A stretch of 64,000 nucleotides of DNA, taken from contig JAZDJN010000095.1 in NCBI GenBank assembly GCA_043803945.1, positions 1 to 64,000 of the forward strand. The letters run 5' to 3'. Position numbers and translations under genes: made by a program. How positions within the stretch are numbered: position 1 is the stretch's first letter; each line of letters begins with the position of its first letter. Positions 23,996-33,089 of this stretch are shown here, one piece after another. Source of the stretch: a bacterium. GTDB lineage: Bacteria > Bacteroidota > Ignavibacteria > UBA10030. The notes under the pieces were generated by a model, which did no database searches, was not told where the DNA came from, and worked only from the letters and a program-made list of their open reading frames with translations.

Positions 23996-26182
23996 TTATC
24001 GCAATAGAACCATTTTTTCTGTTCTCTGATAATTGGCTGTGATTAGTTGATAGAAATATATCCCACTCGATACCTGTCGCCCGAGGTTATCTTTGCCCTC
24101 CCATGCAACCCTGTATGATCCCGCTTGCCGTTGGTCGTTTACAAGAGTTGTGACGAGTTGACCGGTTGAACTGAACACACTCAATCGGACATATTCATTG
24201 TTTGGGATAGTAAACGCGATCACCGTTGATGGATTAAATGGATTTGGATAATTACACAGCGAATACTCCGTCGGAATATCATCTATCATCTCAACCGCGT
24301 CTCCGGCCCTGATCGCTATGCTGTTATTCGGCCCTCGATTTAACAAAACCGTATAGGCGATTGGATCTTCCACTGCTTCAATGCCTTTTCCCTGGTCTCT
24401 TGGCACAAATACTTTATAGGCCGCGGTCGCGACGTTGCCGCTTGGATCGCTCACGGAGAGACTAACGGTATACACGCGTCCGTTTCCATTGCCCTGTCGT
24501 TCTGCACGAAGTTGGACAGATTTACCATCTGAACTTATTACCATATCTTTCAGTGTGTTTCCATCTCCATTGCCGGGTGCATCTTCTGGTTCATCACTTG
24601 AAACCGAATTAATACTCACGTTGGCAAGGTCTATTGGACCAGCACAGAGATCGGAGACAGACTGAGCCATGTTTGTTATCGTGAACTCTACATACTCATG
24701 ATTGGGTGGCCATAGTTGTTTGAACGGTAGTATTACTATTCTCGGTGGAGTTGTATCGATTACTTCTACTGCTCTGATAACCTTTGAAGAATTACCGCTC
24801 TTATCGGTGGCCGTATAGAGCACCGGATATTTTCCTAACACATGGGTGTTCACATTGTGGGTGACCGTTAATGATGGACATGGATCTACCTTATCTATAA
24901 CGGTTACACCGGGATCAACAAATTCTGATCCATATTCAATTTGCATTGGATTCGGCCCTAACAGTGTAACAACTGGCGGCTTGCTATCAATAACTTTCAC
25001 CATCAGTTTATCTGAGTCAACTCCACCCTTTCCATCATTAACCGTTAAGGTTATTTCAGTATCGCCCAATGGAAGAGTTACTATCGGATTAACTCCTGTT
25101 GCTGATCCGGACGTCCAGGTCCAGAGATAGGTCAACTGGTCTCCGTCTGGATCCGAAGATTGGCTTCCATCAAGACTTATGGATGCTCCCTGGGGTGAAA
25201 CTGCTTCTAAAATTTGATCATCGCCAGCGTTAGCAAGAGGCGGTCTATTTCTCATAAATTTATATATACCATTACCATTAGTTCCTGCCAATAATTCACC
25301 GATTTTGTTAAAACAGAGCGCCAGTACCCTGATATTCATTAAGCCGTCATTCATCGGAGACCAATGATTTCCATTATCTAGGGAAACAACAACACCAGCA
25401 TTATTAGTTGCAGCGTACACTTTATCATCTTCATCAATTACTATGCTTAAGATAAAACTATTTTGAAATCCAACTTCGGCCCAAGTAACTCCATCATCGG
25501 TTGATCTAAATATTCCCATTCCAGTGCCTGCAAAAATATGACCTAATGAATTCGCTGTTAAGCAAAATACTCCGTCCACTCTCCGTAATGACGTCTCTAT
25601 CCATGTTTCACCATTATTAGTAGAATAATGAACACTGTTTGCCGCTGTAAATATCTTTCCATCGGGCCGAAAGACGAAGTCGAAAACAACCAAATCAATC
25701 AATCCATTATTTAATTGGTTCCACGAATTACCATTATTTGACGACCTAAAAATGCCGCCCTGATCAGTGCCGGCAAAGATCTCTCCAGAGGGCTTAATGG
25801 CCATAGATAGTACATCCATATTCGTAAGGCCATTATTCACAGGTACCCAATTGTCGCCCTTATCAAGAGAACGGAATATTCCTGCTTTCTCCGTTCCTGC
25901 ATAAGCATATCCAAGTGAATTTACAGCGGTGCATTCCACATTTGTATTCGTAAGGCCGGAATTCACTTGTGTCCATGTGGCCCCATTATCGGTCGATCGA
26001 TAAGCACCAATATTCGTTCCCGCATAAATGATGCCTGATTCACTGATAGAAAATGAATGATACCAGACAACACCATTCGTTAAATTCGTCTGCTGCCAAG
26101 TATTAATTTGGCTCCATAGAATGACTGGAGTAATTATTAACGCAGTAACAATGATAACATCGTAAAACCTGATTCGTCGCAT
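23996..26182 (-). CDS. Secreted multidomain protein: BNR/Asp-box propeller, PKD-like, DUF5011/HYR-like, LWPPNH Ig-like domain and T9SS CTD
   Basis: Repeated RSTDxGxTW; PLANAGDDQ..LDGSQSSDPDGD; PPVVTLLG..DPG..ATDKSGN; LWPPNH..LRAERQG..GRVY; NYPNPFNPST. Confidence 0.88.
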   Translation of the reverse strand: MRRIRFYDVIIVTALIITPVILWSQINTWQQTNLTNGVVWYHSFSISESGIIYAGTNIGAYRSTDNGATWTQVNSGLTNTNVECTAVNSLGYAYAGTEKAGIFRSLDKGDNWVPVNNGLTNMDVLSMAIKPSGEIFAGTDQGGIFRSSNNGNSWNQLNNGLIDLVVFDFVFRPDGKIFTAANSVHYSTNNGETWIETSLRRVDGVFCLTANSLGHIFAGTGMGIFRSTDDGVTWAEVGFQNSFILSIVIDEDDKVYAATNNAGVVVSLDNGNHWSPMNDGLMNIRVLALCFNKIGELLAGTNGNGIYKFMRNRPPLANAGDDQILEAVSPQGASISLDGSQSSDPDGDQLTYLWTWTSGSATGVNPIVTLPLGDTEITLTVNDGKGGVDSDKLMVKVIDSKPPVVTLLGPNPMQIEYGSEFVDPGVTVIDKVDPCPSLTVTHNVNTHVLGKYPVLYTATDKSGNSSKVIRAVEVIDTTPPRIVILPFKQLWPPNHEYVEFTITNMAQSVSDLCAGPIDLANVSINSVSSDEPEDAPGNGDGNTLKDMVISSDGKSVQLRAERQGNGNGRVYTVSLSVSDPSGNVATAAYKVFVPRDQGKGIEAVEDPIAYTVLLNRGPNNSIAIRAGDAVEMIDDIPTEYSLCNYPNPFNPSTVIAFTIPNNEYVRLSVFSSTGQLVTTLVNDQRQAGSYRVAWEGKDNLGRQVSSGIYFYQLITANYQRTEKMVLLR

Positions 26183-26482
26183 AGATCCTCCAACTTCTGG
26201 TGAGAGTTTATACAGCGTACGATTTGAGAATCATTTCCACATATGAGTGTAACAACCTAAATGTCTTTTTCCATGTATCGTTGCGTCAGTCAGTGAATTC
26301 CTGTTCTGTATTGCTTATGCACGTCACCCTTAGTGTAAAGGAGGATAAAGCAAGAAGGGAAATGTAAATTGAAATCAGAACCGATGATCGGGACCCCATC
26401 TGAAACTCAATCATATACAAATGGTGGTCATCTGGCAACAATCCCCCACATTTCCTGTCTTGCTTTTCTCTCTCCTATTTTC

Positions 26483-28174
26483 TTAGCGGAGCAGGAGCAT
26501 TTTCTTTGCCTCAATATAGTTGACCGCTTTAATCTGGTAGAAATATGTACCGCTCGCAACCTGGCGGCCAGTATTATCACGACCGTCCCAGCGGACTGAG
26601 TAACTTCCAGCATCCCGTTGTTCATTGAGAAGGGATCGGATGAGCTGGCCTACTGAGTTGTAGATTCTTATTTCAACAGTTCCTATCTGCGGGAGCTGAT
26701 ACTCAATGATTGTAGATGGATTGAATGGGTTGGGGTAGTTTTGAGAAAGGATAATCTCTCTTGGTAAAGTCTCATCAATTCTATGTTTGACATCGGTTAA
26801 GATCAATTGGATTTCAGATAAACTGAGAGCTCTGTTATAAATTCGGATATCATCCAGAGATCCTTTCCAATATTGTCCACCAAGGCTTCTACCAATATTC
26901 ATAGGCTCCGTATCATTTGTCGGGTCTGCTTCCATCATGAATTCAGAGTCCAATTCATTATCGAGATAAAGTTTTAAATTCCTACCAGAAATTACTGCTG
27001 TGAATAATACCCACTTATTCAAAAGAAGAACCTTATTGCCAACCCTCGTATTGTTTTGATAAGAAAATGCGATTCTTTGATTATACTGTTGAAGTTGATA
27101 AGAATAGTGGCTAGTACCCTTTGATACAATTGCAGCATTATCAACATACGAAGACAGGGTAGCCCACCCGGAGATTGTCATTGTCAATTGTGTCGGATAT
27201 TGTAATATTGCATTGTGTGGTATTTGTATATAAGAACTGCCATTGAAGGAGTACGCTTTGTTAGAATTGCCCAATCTATCAGTCGTAAGTGTGGCACCAG
27301 CGAGAGTTCCATTATTCCCATTTCCACTTTCGTCATTTACATTTCCATTAAAGGGATAGTACGCAACAAGACCATCTGAAACTCTATTGAATGTTACCGT
27401 AGCCGTTCCGGTGTTATCACCTAGGTCTCCAGCATCGACAAAGAATAAATATCCCTGTGCATAAGAAATTCCAGCAGGCGATGGAAATGTGATGGTTTTT
27501 GTTTGCGTAGTGAATACTTCGTATAAAGCATGTCCACGGGGCCATTGAGAGGTAGTTTCACCGGTACCGGCAAAGAAGAACACTCTATCGATATCTCCTC
27601 CGGCGTGAGTCCCGTTAAAAGAAGCTGTAACATTATATGCCCCTAAGGGTAAATTGACAATCGCAGCCGAGTTTTGAGGTGTGATCCATGTATGTTTGTT
27701 CGGTTGAAGAGTTGTAATGATTGTATCTGCTTTTGTTGTTGCGGGTACCTTGATAAACGTTACCGTAGCCGTTCCAGAGTTATCATTGAGGTCTCCAGCA
27801 TCGACAAAGAATAGATATCCTTGTGCATATGAAATTCCAGCAGGCGATGGAAATGTGATGGTTTTTGTTTGAGTAGTGAATACTTCGTATAAAGCATGTC
27901 CACGAGGCCACTGAGAGGTAGTTTCACCTGTACCGGCAAAGAAGAACACTCTATCAATATCTCCCCCAGCGTGAGTCCCACTAAAAGAGGCTGTGACATT
28001 ATACGTTCCCAATGGTAAATTGACTATAGCAGCTGAGTTTTGCGGTGTGACCCATGTATGTTTATTGGGCTGCAATGTAACCGTAATTGGTGATTGAGCA
28101 GCAGTAAAGTTATAAACAAATAGTTGTGCAACTATCATTACACCAAAGAACTTCGAATGGGTTTTCATAAACAT
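26483..28174 (-). CDS. Secreted protein with two near-identical ~120-aa domains, a LamG-like jelly-roll and T9SS CTD
   Basis: Signal peptide; duplicated TLQPNKHTW...DNxGTATVTF; GLVAYYPFNGN..DESG..GSLDDIRIYNRALS; QNYPNPFNPST. Confidence 0.88.
   Translation of the reverse strand: MFMKTHSKFFGVMIVAQLFVYNFTAAQSPITVTLQPNKHTWVTPQNSAAIVNLPLGTYNVTASFSGTHAGGDIDRVFFFAGTGETTSQWPRGHALYEVFTTQTKTITFPSPAGISYAQGYLFFVDAGDLNDNSGTATVTFIKVPATTKADTIITTLQPNKHTWITPQNSAAIVNLPLGAYNVTASFNGTHAGGDIDRVFFFAGTGETTSQWPRGHALYEVFTTQTKTITFPSPAGISYAQGYLFFVDAGDLGDNTGTATVTFNRVSDGLVAYYPFNGNVNDESGNGNNGTLAGATLTTDRLGNSNKAYSFNGSSYIQIPHNAILQYPTQLTMTISGWATLSSYVDNAAIVSKGTSHYSYQLQQYNQRIAFSYQNNTRVGNKVLLLNKWVLFTAVISGRNLKLYLDNELDSEFMMEADPTNDTEPMNIGRSLGGQYWKGSLDDIRIYNRALSLSEIQLILTDVKHRIDETLPREIILSQNYPNPFNPSTIIEYQLPQIGTVEIRIYNSVGQLIRSLLNEQRDAGSYSVRWDGRDNTGRQVASGTYFYQIKAVNYIEAKKMLLLR
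27389..28087 (-). repeat. Intragenic tandem duplication, period 366 bp
   Basis: Two copies about 90% identical in protein, with many synonymous changes. Confidence 0.9.
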
Positions 28175-28321
28175 AGCTCCTCCTTACCAGTCCATTGATT
28201 GAAAATTTCTTTAATTGAATCCCAACATTCATTCATCTATACAAAAGAAGAGGCTTGCCGAAAAATAAAGCCGAACCTTTTTTGGCTCGGCTTCTTCCCA
28301 AATGATTGTATGGATCTGAGT

Positions 28322-30082
28322 TTAGTGCAGCTTCTTCAATGCCTCCCAGTATTTCCCATTAATTGTGACTTTTCGAGTCCACTTATCTCCATCCCAATAC
28401 TCAAAAGTCTTCTGATATTTTCTGAAATACTCCTCGTCTGGAAATCGGCTAATTTCTCGTTGCTCGAAGAGATTCCTCGCAATATTCGAATACTCATCTG
28501 CCCATTGGACTTCAATAACCCTCATGTCAAATCCGAAGTGCGGATAGATCATCGCTTTTGGTTCGCTAGAATTTGGGTGAACGTCAGTGACCCGGAATCG
28601 AATAACTTGGTCTGATTCTCTGACCTCCTCAATACCTGCCTGGCTATATCTTGCTAGATGCTTTTTCTTATAGACCTCTCCAACAATTGTCCTAGGAATT
28701 CTCAGATAGAATTTTTCGCACCCCTCGTATAACGCCTTGCCTGTCCCGCTTCCCAGGGTACAAACACCTGAGATCATTCGCGGATCAATCACAACTATGC
28801 ACGCATCATCGATCCAATCATTAACACCCCCAAAAACAGCTTCTTTGATGCCGTTTCTTTCCAAGTCGACTATTGCAGGTCCATTAAGGTGCCCATAGTG
28901 AAAGTACTTACCATACTCAGATCCATCCTTAACATTCAACAAAAACACGAAGCACGGTGAATAGACACTCACAGCAGTTCCAATGACTCTCCCCTCGAGA
29001 CCCTTGCCAAGATCGCCCACCGTAAGCTCGTGGCAGAAGAAGTTTCTATCCGTTGTATTGTATTCAGTCGGAAAAGCAGTATCTTGATTCAGCTTGTATT
29101 CCCACAAAATTGAATCCCTCACGATTGACTTGCAGCGTAAAAAAGAGGCCTTTCCTCTTTGCTCATCATCTTTATGCCCATAAATGACTTCATTTATTCC
29201 ATCTCCATCAACATCATAAAACGCAGTTGGTGCAACCGTGCTATCGCTTATTCGGATTTGATCAATTTTCTCTCCGTATTGATTCTTGATTAGTAGCATC
29301 TCTCCTTCAACTTTCGATTTTACTGGGTTCCTATCAAACGGTCCATACAATAGTTTTACTAATAGAAGAGTCATCGCCATAATCACTATTAATGCTACTT
29401 GTTTCCGAAATTTCCATATCTTTCTTGCACCCTGTTTATAAACCGGCACTGGTTCCAACTCCGTCAATCGGCGATTGTAAAAAAGCTCTTCAAGATTTGA
29501 AATACCTATAACTCTCGGGAGAATTATTGAGTCCGCATTATTTTGAGTCGTAATATTATGACGATAGTCATCAAGATATTCTTGACATAGCACCTCTTGT
29601 TCTTTTGGCACTATAAGGATCTTTACCCAACTGAAGATACATGCCTCCACTTTTATTTTTAATCCCTCTGCATCAACCGGTAGCAAATTTCCATCCGTAT
29701 TGATCGCGCCGGTTATTGCCGTATCGTCCCGCAAAAAAAACTCACGCTTGAATTGATGCAGCCGTATCAACTCCGTTACCAGGAGGGCCGCCAATCCCGC
29801 ACCAAGCGATTCCCCTTCAATCATCACACGTTTGTCGAAGGAGCAGTGAACAATAAGCTTCCTGCTCACCTTTATTTTCGTAAGCAAAGTAAAGAGCTTT
29901 CTCGCTGCCTGAAGTGCAATCTTCACCTGAGACTGTTGTTCGCCCCCGGAGTCAATCAACTGATCAATAATGATAACATCCTCATCCGATCCGTTGCGGC
30001 TGAACTGCATATGGACCCGCGCTTTTCTGAGCGATGCAAACGCCGAATGGGCATTCTCAATCAGCGGTTCGCAATCGACCAT
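28322..30082 (-). CDS. Membrane-anchored Lon-type (S16) protease domain, TM and extracytoplasmic FG-GAP-like propeller (3' part of one frame starting at 30538)
   Basis: IEGESLGAGLA (cf. Lon KDGPSAG) and TAITGAINTDGNLLPV..GLKIKVEA (cf. AMTGEI..G.VLPIGGLKEK); basic RKIWKFRK then a TM; DVDGDGINE and DLERNGIKE repeats. Confidence 0.75.
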   Translation of the reverse strand: MVDCEPLIENAHSAFASLRKARVHMQFSRNGSDEDVIIIDQLIDSGGEQQSQVKIALQAARKLFTLLTKIKVSRKLIVHCSFDKRVMIEGESLGAGLAALLVTELIRLHQFKREFFLRDDTAITGAINTDGNLLPVDAEGLKIKVEACIFSWVKILIVPKEQEVLCQEYLDDYRHNITTQNNADSIILPRVIGISNLEELFYNRRLTELEPVPVYKQGARKIWKFRKQVALIVIMAMTLLLVKLLYGPFDRNPVKSKVEGEMLLIKNQYGEKIDQIRISDSTVAPTAFYDVDGDGINEVIYGHKDDEQRGKASFLRCKSIVRDSILWEYKLNQDTAFPTEYNTTDRNFFCHELTVGDLGKGLEGRVIGTAVSVYSPCFVFLLNVKDGSEYGKYFHYGHLNGPAIVDLERNGIKEAVFGGVNDWIDDACIVVIDPRMISGVCTLGSGTGKALYEGCEKFYLRIPRTIVGEVYKKKHLARYSQAGIEEVRESDQVIRFRVTDVHPNSSEPKAMIYPHFGFDMRVIEVQWADEYSNIARNLFEQREISRFPDEEYFRKYQKTFEYWDGDKWTRKVTINGKYWEALKKLH

Positions 30083-30088
30083 AGGAAT

Positions 30089-30538
30089 CTAGACATGATC
30101 ACGCCGCTCCGGTTTCTCTCCGGCGGTTTCCTTTCTTCGCCTTTTCCTGGAAACTGAAAGCTCAACCGGTCCTCCGTTTTCGCTCCTTATCGCCATCTGC
30201 TTGTGAATTGTCTCCCGGGCAGTGCGAATCCGCTCCCTTCCTTCTTTCCAGACCTCACTCTGCCCCTCCCCGGAAAGCATTTCCACGAGCAGCGACAGCA
30301 CATGCTCCAGTCGATCAAGAAATAGGGGATTGGTGTAAGAGAAGTCTGTGCCGGAAACGATCGGAACAAGAAGCGAGAATAGCTCCTGTGCATACGCATA
30401 GAGAAAACTCCGCCCATCCGCCGATTGAAACTCTTCAACGAACCTTACAATACGAAGCAACTTATTGCGGTTGCCTCTTAAAACCGCAAGCTCCTGTTTT
30501 AGCACCCTGAAGGAATGTTCGATGCGTAGGGGATCCAT
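30089..30538 (-). CDS. Helical N-terminal part of the Lon-like gene, separated by one in-frame TAG
   Basis: GAT CAT GTC TAG ATT CCT ATG GTC: same frame as 28322..30082. Confidence 0.65.
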   Translation of the reverse strand: MDPLRIEHSFRVLKQELAVLRGNRNKLLRIVRFVEEFQSADGRSFLYAYAQELFSLLVPIVSGTDFSYTNPLFLDRLEHVLSLLVEMLSGEGQSEVWKEGRERIRTARETIHKQMAIRSENGGPVELSVSRKRRRKETAGEKPERRDHV

Positions 30539-30615
30539 TGGGGTTGATAAAAAGTGTTATGCTGAAAAAAGAAAACCTAATTTGAGTGAATTAAAAGGCT
30601 GTTTTTCTGACTCAT

Positions 30616-30661
30616 CCCCCCATCCCCCTTCTCTAATTTTAGAGAAGGGGGAGAAAGGGGG
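30616..30661. repeat. Palindromic CCCCCTTCTCT..AGAGAAGGGGG element
   Basis: Stem-loop of the same style as 2371-2432. Confidence 0.55.
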
Positions 30662-30694
30662 TTGAGTCCGAATACCACAGAGATTCATCAAGAG

Positions 30695-31294
30695 TCAATG
30701 CGTCGCTAATGCGACTGTCGCTGTCTTCCAGTCGATACTGTTCGCGTTATCAACGAGCGCTGCCCCTTTGTGGTCCGGCCTGATGTTGAGAATGTTGCCG
30801 CGTTGATCTGAAATAATAATATCACACGCTTCCCGCAATGAATCATCGCTGGTGAGAAGATACACCGTGTATTGATCATTGGCACTATCCCGAACCACGC
30901 GTAAGAGAGTTTCTTTTTCTGCAACAAACGTTGCGACCGTGCTGAATTTTTCACCTTCCTCTTTTTTCTCCAGCGCCGCCATTAGTGTAACATTCTGCCG
31001 GAGGTGAATGCCATTTTCTGCCACCCCTGGTTCATATCGGCGCAGGGGAATTATCTTCTTCGCTGTATTGCCCTCAATCAGGTTCAGTATCTCCGCGTCC
31101 AGCGGTGTGGACAATTCATCGTTCAGGGTGGAATAATACTGGCGGAAATATGCATACTTCTCCCTGCAGACCGAACACTCTCCGAAATGCGCCTCCGCAT
31201 TGGGGGGCACCGGCGTGTCAGATTCAGCGCTTGCCCGTGCCAGTTCTTCAATACTGTCTTCGCTAAGATGGTTCATAATAAACAGACCCTTCAC
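30695..31294 (-). CDS. Soluble zinc-binding (zf-HC2/ZAS) anti-sigma-like protein
   Basis: HLSED..EAHFGECSVC (H..HxxxCxxC); no TM; central TLMAA; beta-rich C-terminal domain. Confidence 0.7.
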   Translation of the reverse strand: MKGLFIMNHLSEDSIEELARASAESDTPVPPNAEAHFGECSVCREKYAYFRQYYSTLNDELSTPLDAEILNLIEGNTAKKIIPLRRYEPGVAENGIHLRQNVTLMAALEKKEEGEKFSTVATFVAEKETLLRVVRDSANDQYTVYLLTSDDSLREACDIIISDQRGNILNIRPDHKGAALVDNANSIDWKTATVALATH

Positions 31295-31318
31295 TCATAG
31301 TATCTGCGCATGTTCATC

Positions 31319-32356
31319 TCACCGCGTAATGTTTAATTCCCGTTTCATCAACCTGATCATTTCTTCCCGTGAGGTCTTTACAAGGTATTCAACTCTGTGT
31401 CGGTATTGTTCTCTATAAAGCGTTTTACTAAGAGCCGGCTTGTAAACTTTAAGAATCTCGTAATACGAGCGGCCTGGATTACACTTATTACTATATTCTG
31501 CCATGAGGATATCGATGAGAATTTGTTTGAGGAGTTGCTCGTCGGCATCAACCAGTTTCCCTTTGTCCACATACCCCTTCCCCTGTCGTGCCATAACTCT
31601 GGAAACAGATTTTTCAATGACAACACTCAAATCATCATTCCTAATACTATTCTCTCCGTCCGATACTTCGTCGTCCGGATACTCCGATAGATAAAAAGAG
31701 CGAAACAGAAGAGCGGCCCCTGTTACTGAATATGTTTTCCGGTAATTATCCTGCCGATCCAGAACCTTAACTAACACGGTCAGAAGATCTTTTATAGTAT
31801 TCACCCCTGCTGCTTCTGAACGGAATTCAATTTCCAGAAGCTCGGGCGGAATATCAGAACGGGATTCATTCAGTGCATTACCTCCTGTTACTGCAATCGC
31901 CTGCTCTCCATGGTGCACAACCAGGGTTGCGTCGATATGATTCTTCAATGCAAGTTTGATATTCCGGATTAACCTCGCAAGCCCGGGGTCGTTCTCCCGG
32001 TAGGATAAAATGATTCGCTGGTTCACCGAGGAAAATACCAGCCTGCGAAGCTCATGAAGCAGTTCGCTCTCTGTCTTGATGTTGATAGACTCTATCGTCT
32101 TGAAATACCCTTCAAACACTACCCAGCGGCCTGTCCCATCGCGCCTGAATAAATCCGCAATAGCATCATAAGCAAAATCGGAAATATCCAGTCCAAATTG
32201 CACCGTTTGGAAGGAGGTTACCCTGGTCTTCATTTTTAAACAGGCAATTGCCATTTTGTGGCATGCGTTGACAAGCCGGGTCAGCCTGGCAGGAGAACAG
32301 TTTCCCTGGAGGATCTCTATGAGAATAACACGCAAATCATCAACGAATGGTTGCAT
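31319..32356 (-). CDS. Divergent ECF-like sigma factor (putative)
   Basis: DFAYDAIADLF..LRRLVFSSVNQRI resembles region 2; SYYEIL..RVEYLVKTSREEM resembles region 4; lies directly upstream of the ZAS gene. Confidence 0.55.
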   Translation of the reverse strand: MQPFVDDLRVILIEILQGNCSPARLTRLVNACHKMAIACLKMKTRVTSFQTVQFGLDISDFAYDAIADLFRRDGTGRWVVFEGYFKTIESINIKTESELLHELRRLVFSSVNQRIILSYRENDPGLARLIRNIKLALKNHIDATLVVHHGEQAIAVTGGNALNESRSDIPPELLEIEFRSEAAGVNTIKDLLTVLVKVLDRQDNYRKTYSVTGAALLFRSFYLSEYPDDEVSDGENSIRNDDLSVVIEKSVSRVMARQGKGYVDKGKLVDADEQLLKQILIDILMAEYSNKCNPGRSYYEILKVYKPALSKTLYREQYRHRVEYLVKTSREEMIRLMKRELNITR

Positions 32357-32360
32357 AAAT

Positions 32361-32645
32361 CTACAACTCCAAGTTTCGGTAGATTTCTTTGCGGTGTGCG
32401 ATCCGTCGTAGGAAGATCGTGTCGTTATCGAACGAGAAGATGATTCGATACTCGTTTGCTACAATAACCCTGTAGTATCCCTTAAGCCCAGTCATAGGGC
32501 GAACGTCCAACTCGGGGTGAAAGACATCCACACAGAGCTTCTGTGCTGTCTCGAAGGCTTTCGCTTTAACCTCCTCTGGCAGCGGTCTAAGATCACGCGC
32601 AAATCGATTGGTGCGCTGGAGAATCTTGTTACGCGACGAAGTCAT
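32361..32645 (-). CDS. RelE/ParE family toxin
   Basis: RFARDLRPL, PMTGLKGYYRV, EYRIIF, RIAHRKEIY. Confidence 0.88.
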   Translation of the reverse strand: MTSSRNKILQRTNRFARDLRPLPEEVKAKAFETAQKLCVDVFHPELDVRPMTGLKGYYRVIVANEYRIIFSFDNDTIFLRRIAHRKEIYRNLEL

Positions 32646-32835
32646 CGTACGAAGTGACAATGTTTATTTTATTTTCCCGAACATCTTCATCGGACTCGCG
32701 GAGTCCCGTTAGAAATTCCTCACGATACAATTCGTTTGGAGGGAACGCGGAGGTGAGAAACTCTTGAATGGTTTTATACGCTTCGATGAGTTTCGCAAAC
32801 TGTTCGCCAGAAAGCGTAACGGTAACGGTAGCCAT
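32629..32835 (-). CDS. Putative antitoxin
   Basis: 68-aa acidic ORF overlapping the toxin start; EEFLTGLRESDEDVRE; AAGGA RBS. Confidence 0.75.
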   Translation of the reverse strand: MATVTVTLSGEQFAKLIEAYKTIQEFLTSAFPPNELYREEFLTGLRESDEDVRENKINIVTSYDDFVA

Positions 32836-32986: not shown

Positions 32987-33059
<73 letters not shown>

Positions 33060-33089
33060 CATTCATTTTGTGATATCATTAAATGTTAG

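Follow-up and report, generated by a model that had tools for sequence, protein, structure and literature searches.

A conserved module of a membrane-anchored Lon-type protease, an anti-sigma-like protein and an unannotated partner as a candidate transmembrane signalling system

We analysed a 64,000-nucleotide (nt) stretch of DNA from a bacterium of the Ignavibacteria (GTDB lineage Bacteria; Bacteroidota; Ignavibacteria; UBA10030; GenBank assembly GCA_043803945.1, contig JAZDJN010000095.1, positions 1 to 64,000 of the forward strand), hereafter the window. An earlier note, made from the sequence alone, had proposed here a signalling system consisting of an extracytoplasmic function (ECF)-like sigma factor, a soluble zinc anti-sigma factor and a membrane-anchored Lon protease. 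The three co-oriented genes that it described lie where it had placed them, on the minus strand, and the ORF (open reading frame) listing resolves them into 31319-32356 (345 amino acids, aa), 30695-31294 (199 aa), 30089-30538 (149 aa) and 28322-30082 (586 aa), the last two being parts of one protease gene. The module to which they belong is real, conserved and undescribed in the literature searched, and in this window it is represented by an atypical copy that has a premature stop and a short partner. We find the best explanation to be a three-part transmembrane signalling module built around a receptor protease, a reading that we hold to be somewhat probable. The features of the locus, all on the minus strand, are as follows.

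31319..32356, minus strand: ORF for a 345-aa all-helical, cytoplasmic protein, the presumed output factor; called sigma-like from gene context only
30695..31294, minus strand: ORF for a 199-aa soluble, anti-sigma-domain-like protein, short form, with probable start ATG at 31276 (ORF, no transmembrane segment, hhalign)
31163..31186, minus strand: HxxxCxxC motif (HFGECSVC), residues 37-44 of the 199-aa ORF, from the translation
30974..30985, minus strand: LMAA, the copy of the [LM]AA site at this locus, candidate cleavage site and ssrA-like degron, from the alignment
30539..30694, minus strand: 156-nt spacer with a G+C-rich hairpin at about 30623-30650
30089..30538, minus strand: 149-aa ORF, the N-terminal helical domain of the protease gene, ending at the in-frame TAG at 30089-30091
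29438..30082, minus strand: predicted Lon-type (S16-like) proteolytic domain without an ATPase module; Ser92 codon 29807-29809, Lys144 codon 29651-29653
29342..29398, minus strand: single predicted transmembrane helix, residues 229-247, with positive charge on its N-terminal (cytoplasmic) side
28322..29335, minus strand: predicted FG-GAP/PL11-like beta-propeller outside the membrane, with a C-terminal alpha/beta region; interpreted as the sensor domain
28267..28294, minus strand: terminator-like hairpin and T-run directly 3' of the protease gene, from a consensus scan only, which gave 5 sites against 4.5 expected

Domain anatomy of the membrane protease

An AlphaFold2 (AF2) model of the protease-sensor protein was built from an alignment of 19 relatives and reached a predicted local distance difference test score (pLDDT) of 83.8. 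When it was searched against the PDB with Foldseek, all 25 matches listed (ranks 1-48) were Lon proteases or their proteolytic domains, with E values of 2e-8 to 2.6e-7 and a target template modelling score (TM-score) of up to 0.80 for the E. coli Lon proteolytic domain. The family profile found its best sequence match in the proteolytic domain of the LonB-type A. fulgidus Lon (E=1.5e-9). That alignment lays the family GeS on VEGDS and qKVeaa on QKIEAA and brings the Ser onto the GDS Ser and the Lys onto the QK Lys, which we take to be the catalytic dyad of the A. fulgidus enzyme. The two residues, Ser92 in GESLG and Lys144 in LKIK (numbering of the 586-aa ORF), are invariant in 56/56 aligned relatives. 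A Walker A motif occurs in 0/19 relatives, the 4/56 loose matches in the larger set fall at unrelated positions and none is conserved, and no AAA Pfam match was found in the protease ORFs. Fold, profile and motif comparisons together support the assignment of an ATPase-less Lon-type domain, and the proteolytic domain with a Ser/Lys dyad proposed in the earlier note is borne out by them. Its further expectation that Lon_C would be detected came true at the level of fold and profile; Pfam Lon_C on the single sequence scored 16.4 bits, under the gathering cut-off of 21.1 (E 0.0071, residues 113-178 only).

The 586-aa ORF has a single hydrophobic helix at residues 229-247 (KD19 2.39), in agreement with the positive-inside transmembrane segment described previously. 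The 15 residues before it hold six K/R and no D/E, and three K/R and three D/E follow it. Because of this charge pattern the protease domain is predicted to face the cytoplasm, which supports an N-in/C-out protein with the propeller outside. The extracytoplasmic part is beta-rich in the AF2 secondary structure, and the family profile matches the PL11 lyases YesW and YesX and an FG-GAP 'hemolysin-related' protein at E about 5e-6 (YesW 5.4e-6). FG-GAP_3 (cut-off 26.9 bits) is exceeded in the relatives P0008 (34.4), L021 (39.5), L016 (32.8) and L026 (33.7), and the window protein reaches E 0.31; the FG-GAP-like propeller of the earlier note is supported by the profile matches and by the relatives above the cut-off.

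The body formed by the transmembrane helix and the propeller occurs with three cytoplasmic heads: the Lon-type protease, an anti-sigma-like N-terminus and a histidine kinase. Since one body is joined to all three, the propeller is a modular sensor. Fusions to an HxxxCxxC anti-sigma-like N-terminus, 459-495 aa long, were found in P0008, L008 (twice), L013, L017, L024, L081 and L082, and the last two belong to the same genome as the window. A HATPase_c histidine kinase is joined to the propeller in L026 by Pfam; L027 has the same profile matches, the Pfam scan having covered L026 only. These two proteins (L026 3717-5819, L027 516-2594) are 692-700 aa long, and in L026 the kinase is N-terminal to the propeller, the reverse of the usual sensor-kinase order. 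The two-gene form with the fused anti-sigma-like head is much the commoner one, with a propeller match in 14/40 relatives of the same family or order and the full protease form in one (G025).

Partner genes and their proteins

Conservation of the gene neighbourhood was assessed in 401 genomes sampled evenly across the phylum. The full-length protease form is present in 32 of them (23/180 genera), and 31 protease loci from 28 of these 32 genomes were compared for their neighbours. In 24/31 loci, that is, in 24/28 genomes, the protease gene has members of both partner families next to it; at the other 7/31 loci the partner genes are not nearby. No ORF that matches only the ECF hidden Markov model (HMM) adjoins any of the 31 loci. 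Collection scans added 10 protease-type loci with at least 3 kb of upstream sequence, seven of which have the order 345-aa family gene, middle gene, protease gene, and L015 has the pair 2 kb downstream. L009 and L010 are without the partner pair, L009 being a second copy in a metagenome-assembled genome (MAG) whose L012 copy has it. On three cut contigs the middle gene is still directly upstream of the protease gene. The survey thus found the trio co-occurring in 24/31 phylum-sample loci and 8/10 collection loci, as the earlier note had anticipated. An intact trio of 347, 289 and 741 aa is present in G025, and intact copies occur in cultured strains, for example Gracilimonas mengyeensis DSM 21985 (L004).

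Several loci depart from the usual layout. A single partner pair is followed by a tandem of two or three protease-propeller paralogues in L004 (7525-12151), L156, L159 and L162, and the tandem of L183 has no pair in view; these tandems suggest several sensors feeding one output. In L174, L175, L177, L178 and L015 the order is protease, 345-aa family gene and short middle protein (170-182 aa), the usual order having the protease last. In L157 (G340:C5, 4794-6763) an intact protease gene adjoins a 345-aa family gene in three pieces and a middle gene in two, which looks like a decayed copy of the partners.

The middle protein has no transmembrane segment (maximum KD19 0.60) and carries HFGECSVC, so the TM-less HxxxCxxC protein of the earlier note is present as described. 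Read from the probable start, the 199-aa protein has H3...H30xxxC34xxC37, with an N-terminal His about 27 residues upstream of HxxxCxxC, a spacing that we take to resemble that of ChrR-type zinc anti-sigma factors. As to the label of zinc anti-sigma factor, the window copy has the zinc motif and an anti-sigma-like N-terminus, but HxxxCxxC is found in only 9/37 family rows and is therefore not a family trait. Pfam zf-HC2 gave no match on the 199-aa protein and matched 1/10 relatives, below the cut-off (E 0.023). With hhalign, a profile of 15 N-termini, soluble and fused, matched the N-termini of 18 zf-HC2 anti-sigma factors of the same genome with a probability of 93.7% (E 1.8e-7, 43 columns), against 1.8% for the reversed control and 0.1% against ECF sigma factors. 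The similarity rests on the 43 columns around HLxxCxxC, and Cys-less members alone gave a probability of 0.4%. The first 55-65 positions of an HMM of the soluble middle proteins match the N-termini of the fusion proteins (E 6e-10 to 2e-4), hence the soluble and fused architectures share a head.

The only invariant columns in the alignment of the middle proteins (A7) are an Ala-Ala pair. It belongs to an [LM]AA tripeptide found at one aligned site in 35/36 proteins, the single exception reading SLVA, and the strict form [VLIM][LM]AA occurs in 29/36 rows, with a background frequency of 2.2e-4 per residue. On either side of the stretch that contains it, the alignment has gaps of differing length. 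The site resembles both the LAA cut site of CalpT and the end (ALAA) of this genome's own ssrA tag. The tag encoded by the genome's transfer-messenger RNA (tmRNA) is ANYNYALAA, and ClpX is encoded as well. Because that tag ends in ALAA, we infer that a cut after [LM]AA would create an ssrA-like end.

It may be asked whether the middle protein is the substrate at all, or whether the Lon-type domain serves quality control or maturation by processing itself, the receptor or some other substrate that is membrane-bound or secreted, with the two upstream genes merely regulating its expression. Consistent with such a role are the 7/31 Lon-type loci that are without partner genes, the tandem arrays of two or three protease paralogues that share one partner pair, and the frequency of type IX secretion system (T9SS) cargo genes as neighbours. 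On the other hand, the protease takes the place that the anti-sigma-like head has in the commoner architecture on the same transmembrane-plus-propeller body, which argues for the same pathway, the conserved LAA site sits in the variable linker of the partner, and the catalytic domain and the partner are on the same, cytoplasmic side of the membrane. We regard a role apart from the partners as improbable.

The 345-aa protein has no transmembrane segment (maximum KD19 1.05) and belongs to a large family: a library of 1.84 billion sequences yields 1,489 representatives (clusters at 50% identity) at E<=1e-3, of which 751 reach E<=1e-30. All named members are 'hypothetical' and without a Pfam domain. 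In the earlier note the protein was credited with sigma region 2- and region 4-like ends, a description that the comparisons made here do not sustain. Pfam and NCBIfam gave no match for it, 0/108 family members matched the Sigma70 models at E<=1, and hhalign, run on the whole protein or by domain against 29 ECF sigma factors of this genome and 25 group-1/3 sigma factors, returned probabilities of 0.1-4.2%. The positive control, ECF against group-1/3 sigma factors, gave 98.2% (E 3.8e-14). With filters off, the ECF HMM had one match among 135 members, a 20-residue 'WLY..A.N' helix in L181 (E 1.2e-4), which we rejected, as it is out of sigma2 order and stands alone (1/135); everything else in that search was at E>=0.1. 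Seven short candidates for bridging relatives of the N-domain (residues 1-140) yielded none at E<=1, and the family profile found nothing below E 0.01 among PDB sequences, the best being 3v68 at E 0.013 and kinesin light chain/Abf2 at about 0.06. In the upstream regions of 18 family genes, a search for bipartite promoter motifs, made up of a 5-mer and a 4-mer 14-19 nt apart, found none that is shared, the best pair occurring in 4/18, the same as in shuffles.

The AF2 model of the 345-aa protein is confident (pLDDT 89.7), and Foldseek of the whole model against the PDB gave nothing at E<=0.001; the sigma fold that had been expected was not recovered at a significant level. The best match is weak and is a sigma factor, sigma32 (8hkc_E; E 0.69, probability 0.41), and sigma-bearing RNA polymerase chains make up 11/47 of the Foldseek matches listed, all of them weak. 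Among Atlas look-alikes the nearest named clusters are Sigma70_r2 or r4 ones, with 15-33% of members carrying Sigma70_r2, scores of 0.82-0.84 and TM-scores of 0.44-0.50; the value of 0.50 spans 99 residues of the N-domain and by the tool's own calibration such matches are leads only. The sigma-like label thus comes from the gene context and not from the protein itself, which is not detectably a sigma factor by these sequence comparisons. In both architectures the gene that immediately precedes the anti-sigma-like one encodes a 345-aa family member. Among the relatives, 9/10 fused-form loci have a family ORF inside their 1.5-kb flank. This genome has three family paralogues, and behind each of the two outside the module stands a gene for a propeller protein with a fused anti-sigma-like head.

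The same proteolytic relay could then release something other than a sigma factor, with the 345-aa protein as a DNA-binding or enzyme-regulating effector held by the anti-sigma-like protein. All sigma tests were negative although the positive control worked, the family is large and wholly unannotated, and the AF2 model has a beta-hairpin in the middle domain, which we presume to be untypical of sigma region 3. Yet the gene always stands just upstream of one for a protein with an anti-sigma-like N-terminus, the arrangement known from ECF sigma factors and their anti-sigma factors; the weak top Foldseek matches listed repeatedly include sigma chains; and the nearest named Atlas neighbours, as leads, are the Sigma70_r2/r4 clusters. 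On this evidence we judge a non-sigma effector to be unlikely, although less so than a protease unconnected with its partners.

The copy in the window and its surroundings

The protease gene of the window is one 738-codon frame (28322-30538) interrupted by the in-frame TAG at 30089-30091. The 149-aa and 586-aa ORFs share this frame, and TAG-ATT-CCT alone separates them before the ATG of the 586-aa ORF. Read through, with X at the stop, the frame gives 738 residues that align end to end with single-protein homologues of 691-794 aa (relatives overall are single proteins of 683-809 aa), at 57% identity to the closest homologue, P0002 (62% in the first homologue search); a metagenome scan for nearer protease relatives found none above 30% identity. 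The TAG falls on an alignment column that most relatives fill with L, W, Y, F or I, and a residue is present in all 55 other aligned rows. The genome-wide protease search also records one TAG inside the match at this locus, and in the phylum sample 2/42 protease matches have an internal stop and 40/42 are intact. The earlier note had placed a helical N-terminal domain and the Lon domain in one frame; both domains are present, but the N-terminal one is encoded in the separate 149-aa ORF upstream of the TAG. Because of the premature stop the function of the protease system in this genome is uncertain, and the copy may be impaired or may work as separate 149-aa and 586-aa pieces.

The middle gene differs from its relatives as well. 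The 199-aa protein is without the C-terminal ~85 residues found in most or the nearest relatives, and short middle proteins of 170-203 aa occur in 8/37 relatives. Middle and protease genes usually abut at other loci, unlike the 156-nt spacer here. The hairpin in this spacer (30623-30650) is perfect and G+C-rich, with an 11-bp stem around AAAATT, and occupies the place of the 3' end of the middle gene in relatives; it may be a deletion or insertion remnant or an internal attenuator.

Upstream of the module, on the minus strand at 32361-32835 of the window, lie an ORF for a ParE-like toxin (99 aa; Pfam ParE_toxin 27.3 bits, over the cut-off) and an overlapping 68-aa upstream ORF, which from their sequences look like a toxin-antitoxin pair. 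The ParE-like ORF ends 4 nt before the 345-aa gene, and a toxin-antitoxin pair stands at the operon head in no other locus examined. A tRNA-Gly (CCC) gene at 32987-33060 of the window, plus strand, lies just past the pair, and since it adjoins the toxin-antitoxin cassette it suggests a small insertion at this spot.

Decay of the module, with signalling lost in this genome, is accordingly an explanation to be weighed: the protease would be a nonsense pseudogene, the middle protein truncated and the toxin-antitoxin pair a newcomer that landed at the operon head. A stop where every other aligned row has a residue, in a gene that is interrupted in just two of the 42 phylum-sample matches, a middle protein without its last ~85 residues with the hairpin spacer in their place, and a ParE-like gene 4 nt from the 345-aa gene speak for it, and the clearly fragmented partner genes of G340 make plain that decay does happen. 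However, the stop is the only one, and on both sides of it the frame is open and well conserved, with the identity to P0002 given above. The ATG three codons past the TAG could allow re-initiation and yield a 586-aa protease with an intact dyad, short middle proteins occur beside intact protease genes, and the TAG is possibly a sequencing or assembly error. Decay at this locus is in our estimate a serious possibility that falls short of being probable.

The neighbours identified are T9SS cargo genes, the ParE-like gene and the tRNA-Gly gene; MoxR-like and DUF58-like genes were named by eye from translations. T9SS cargo proteins with Por_Secre_tail, several with Laminin_G_3 or Sortilin/BNR domains, adjoin the module and make up 7/10 of the neighbouring proteins scanned. 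They lie at 23996-28174 of the window (minus strand) and at L002 13273-15342, L008 4329-7601, L012 4460-7963, L010 14372-17638 and L023 7130-10111. They could be regulon members or merely common genes in these genomes. PADLOC gave no match for any of the four ORFs, and no SAVED domain was matched on the contig of the window, in agreement with the earlier note, the only SAVED match of the genome being on contig C7. A reading as a defence system was dropped on these two results.

Proposed mechanism and relation to known systems

The analysis shows how the domains are arranged, how the protein sits in the membrane, that the dyad and the LAA site are conserved, that the genes stay together and that the propeller is used in a modular way; from this we infer a cleavage, a degron step, a function for the partner and a ligand as follows. 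The membrane protein, with its helical N-domain, Lon-type Ser/Lys protease, one transmembrane helix and outside propeller, would act as a receptor protease. A signal at the propeller, possibly a glycan, would turn on the cytoplasmic protease, which would cut the soluble anti-sigma-domain protein at the conserved [LM]AA. The N-terminal fragment, now ending in ...LAA, would be removed by ClpXP-type proteases because this end resembles the ssrA degron. The 345-aa partner would thereby be set free and would alter transcription, most likely as a very divergent sigma-like factor. Compared with the two-gene form, the anti-sigma-like head would have become a soluble protein and the membrane body would have acquired the Lon-type protease, and cutting of the soluble protein at its LAA site would be the simplest account of how the signal is passed on. 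The weak points of the proposal are the partnerless loci, the poor zf-HC2 matching and Cys-dependent similarity of the middle protein, the negative sigma comparisons of the 345-aa family and, for this genome, the premature stop; taken together they count against it. A receptor protease of the CalpL or BlaR1 kind is nevertheless well supported by context, and the logic of the earlier note, a CalpL-type release wired to an outside sensor, is largely upheld by the anatomy, synteny and LAA site, its ECF-like sigma factor being the part that fell. In its fullest form, the proposal describes a hitherto undescribed group of single-pass receptor proteases of the FCB group, acting through an LAA clip and ClpXP, with the 345-aa protein founding a family of at least 1,489 clusters of initiation factors that are invisible to sigma-70 models; we offer this version tentatively, as possible rather than probable.

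The closest known parallel is the type III CRISPR-associated CalpL-CalpT-CalpS system. CalpL is reported to cut CalpT in 'LAAA' between two alanines (LAA|A) and so to uncover an LAA C-degron on which the release of CalpS by cellular proteases depends (bioRxiv 10.1101/2024.05.08.593097). The systems share a Lon-type Ser/Lys protease that has no ATPase and is joined to a helical N-domain and a sensor domain, a soluble partner with a poorly structured Ala-rich LAA site (cut in CalpT, a candidate site here) and a third protein that is released, as we propose for the module. They differ in the sensor, a cytoplasmic SAVED domain in CalpL and an extracytoplasmic propeller behind a transmembrane helix here, and no cA4 (cyclic tetra-adenylate) or CRISPR link was seen at this locus, though no dedicated cas search was made. 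Unlike CalpT, the middle protein is without detected MazF or DUF2080 domains, Pfam giving no match to either in it or in the relatives scanned, and unlike CalpS the 345-aa protein is not recognisably ECF-like. Because there is no SAVED domain, no MazF or DUF2080 domain in the partner and no recognisable ECF sigma factor, the module is, as judged from sequence, outside the CalpLTS family. CalpL is also not among the PDB sequence matches of the protease family profile at E<=1.

The proposal resembles the RseA/DegS/RseP/ClpXP and RsgI systems in that an outside signal would cause an anti-sigma domain to be destroyed, the newly made Ala-Ala C-terminus serving as degron; for RseA this end is VAA, as cited in the CalpL preprint (bioRxiv 10.1101/2024.05.08.593097). 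The two-gene relatives have the classical single-pass anti-sigma layout of an anti-sigma-like head, a transmembrane helix and an outside domain. In contrast to regulated intramembrane proteolysis systems, the three-gene form has a soluble anti-sigma-like protein and a receptor that carries the protease, and no site-1 or site-2 protease is implied. With the LonB/Lon proteolytic domain (MEROPS S16) the module shares the fold and the Ser-Lys dyad; unlike LonA and LonB it is without an AAA+ module, scores below the Lon_C cut-off and is fused to a transmembrane helix and propeller.

In BlaR1/MecR1 an outside sensor is coupled to a protease whose activation leads to loss of the soluble transcription inhibitor BlaI/MecI; BlaR1, a zinc metalloprotease that spans the membrane several times and senses through a penicillin-binding domain, acts on a DNA-binding repressor. 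The module is like BlaR1/MecR1-BlaI/MecI in having a membrane receptor whose sensor domain lies outside and whose protease domain faces the cytoplasm, and differs in being single-pass, with a Lon-type Ser/Lys protease, a propeller and a proposed target that is anti-sigma-like. BlaR1 is described as a membrane sensor with a cytoplasm-facing protease (PMC9834060). Full-text searching of the literature found no description of a module such as the one presented here, the supplements of the CalpL papers, which possibly survey Lon-domain architectures, lying outside that search.

If the proposed mechanism is true, it would provide bacteria with a third route by which a signal from outside the membrane reaches a transcription factor, next to the two-component phosphorelay and stepwise intramembrane proteolysis, and one in which the receptor itself is the protease. 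It would also mean that the logic of CalpL is not confined to CRISPR defence. The module is open to direct testing, given that intact copies exist in cultured strains and that the predicted cut site is one conserved tripeptide, and deciding the sigma identity of the 345-aa family would give a function to well over a thousand protein clusters.

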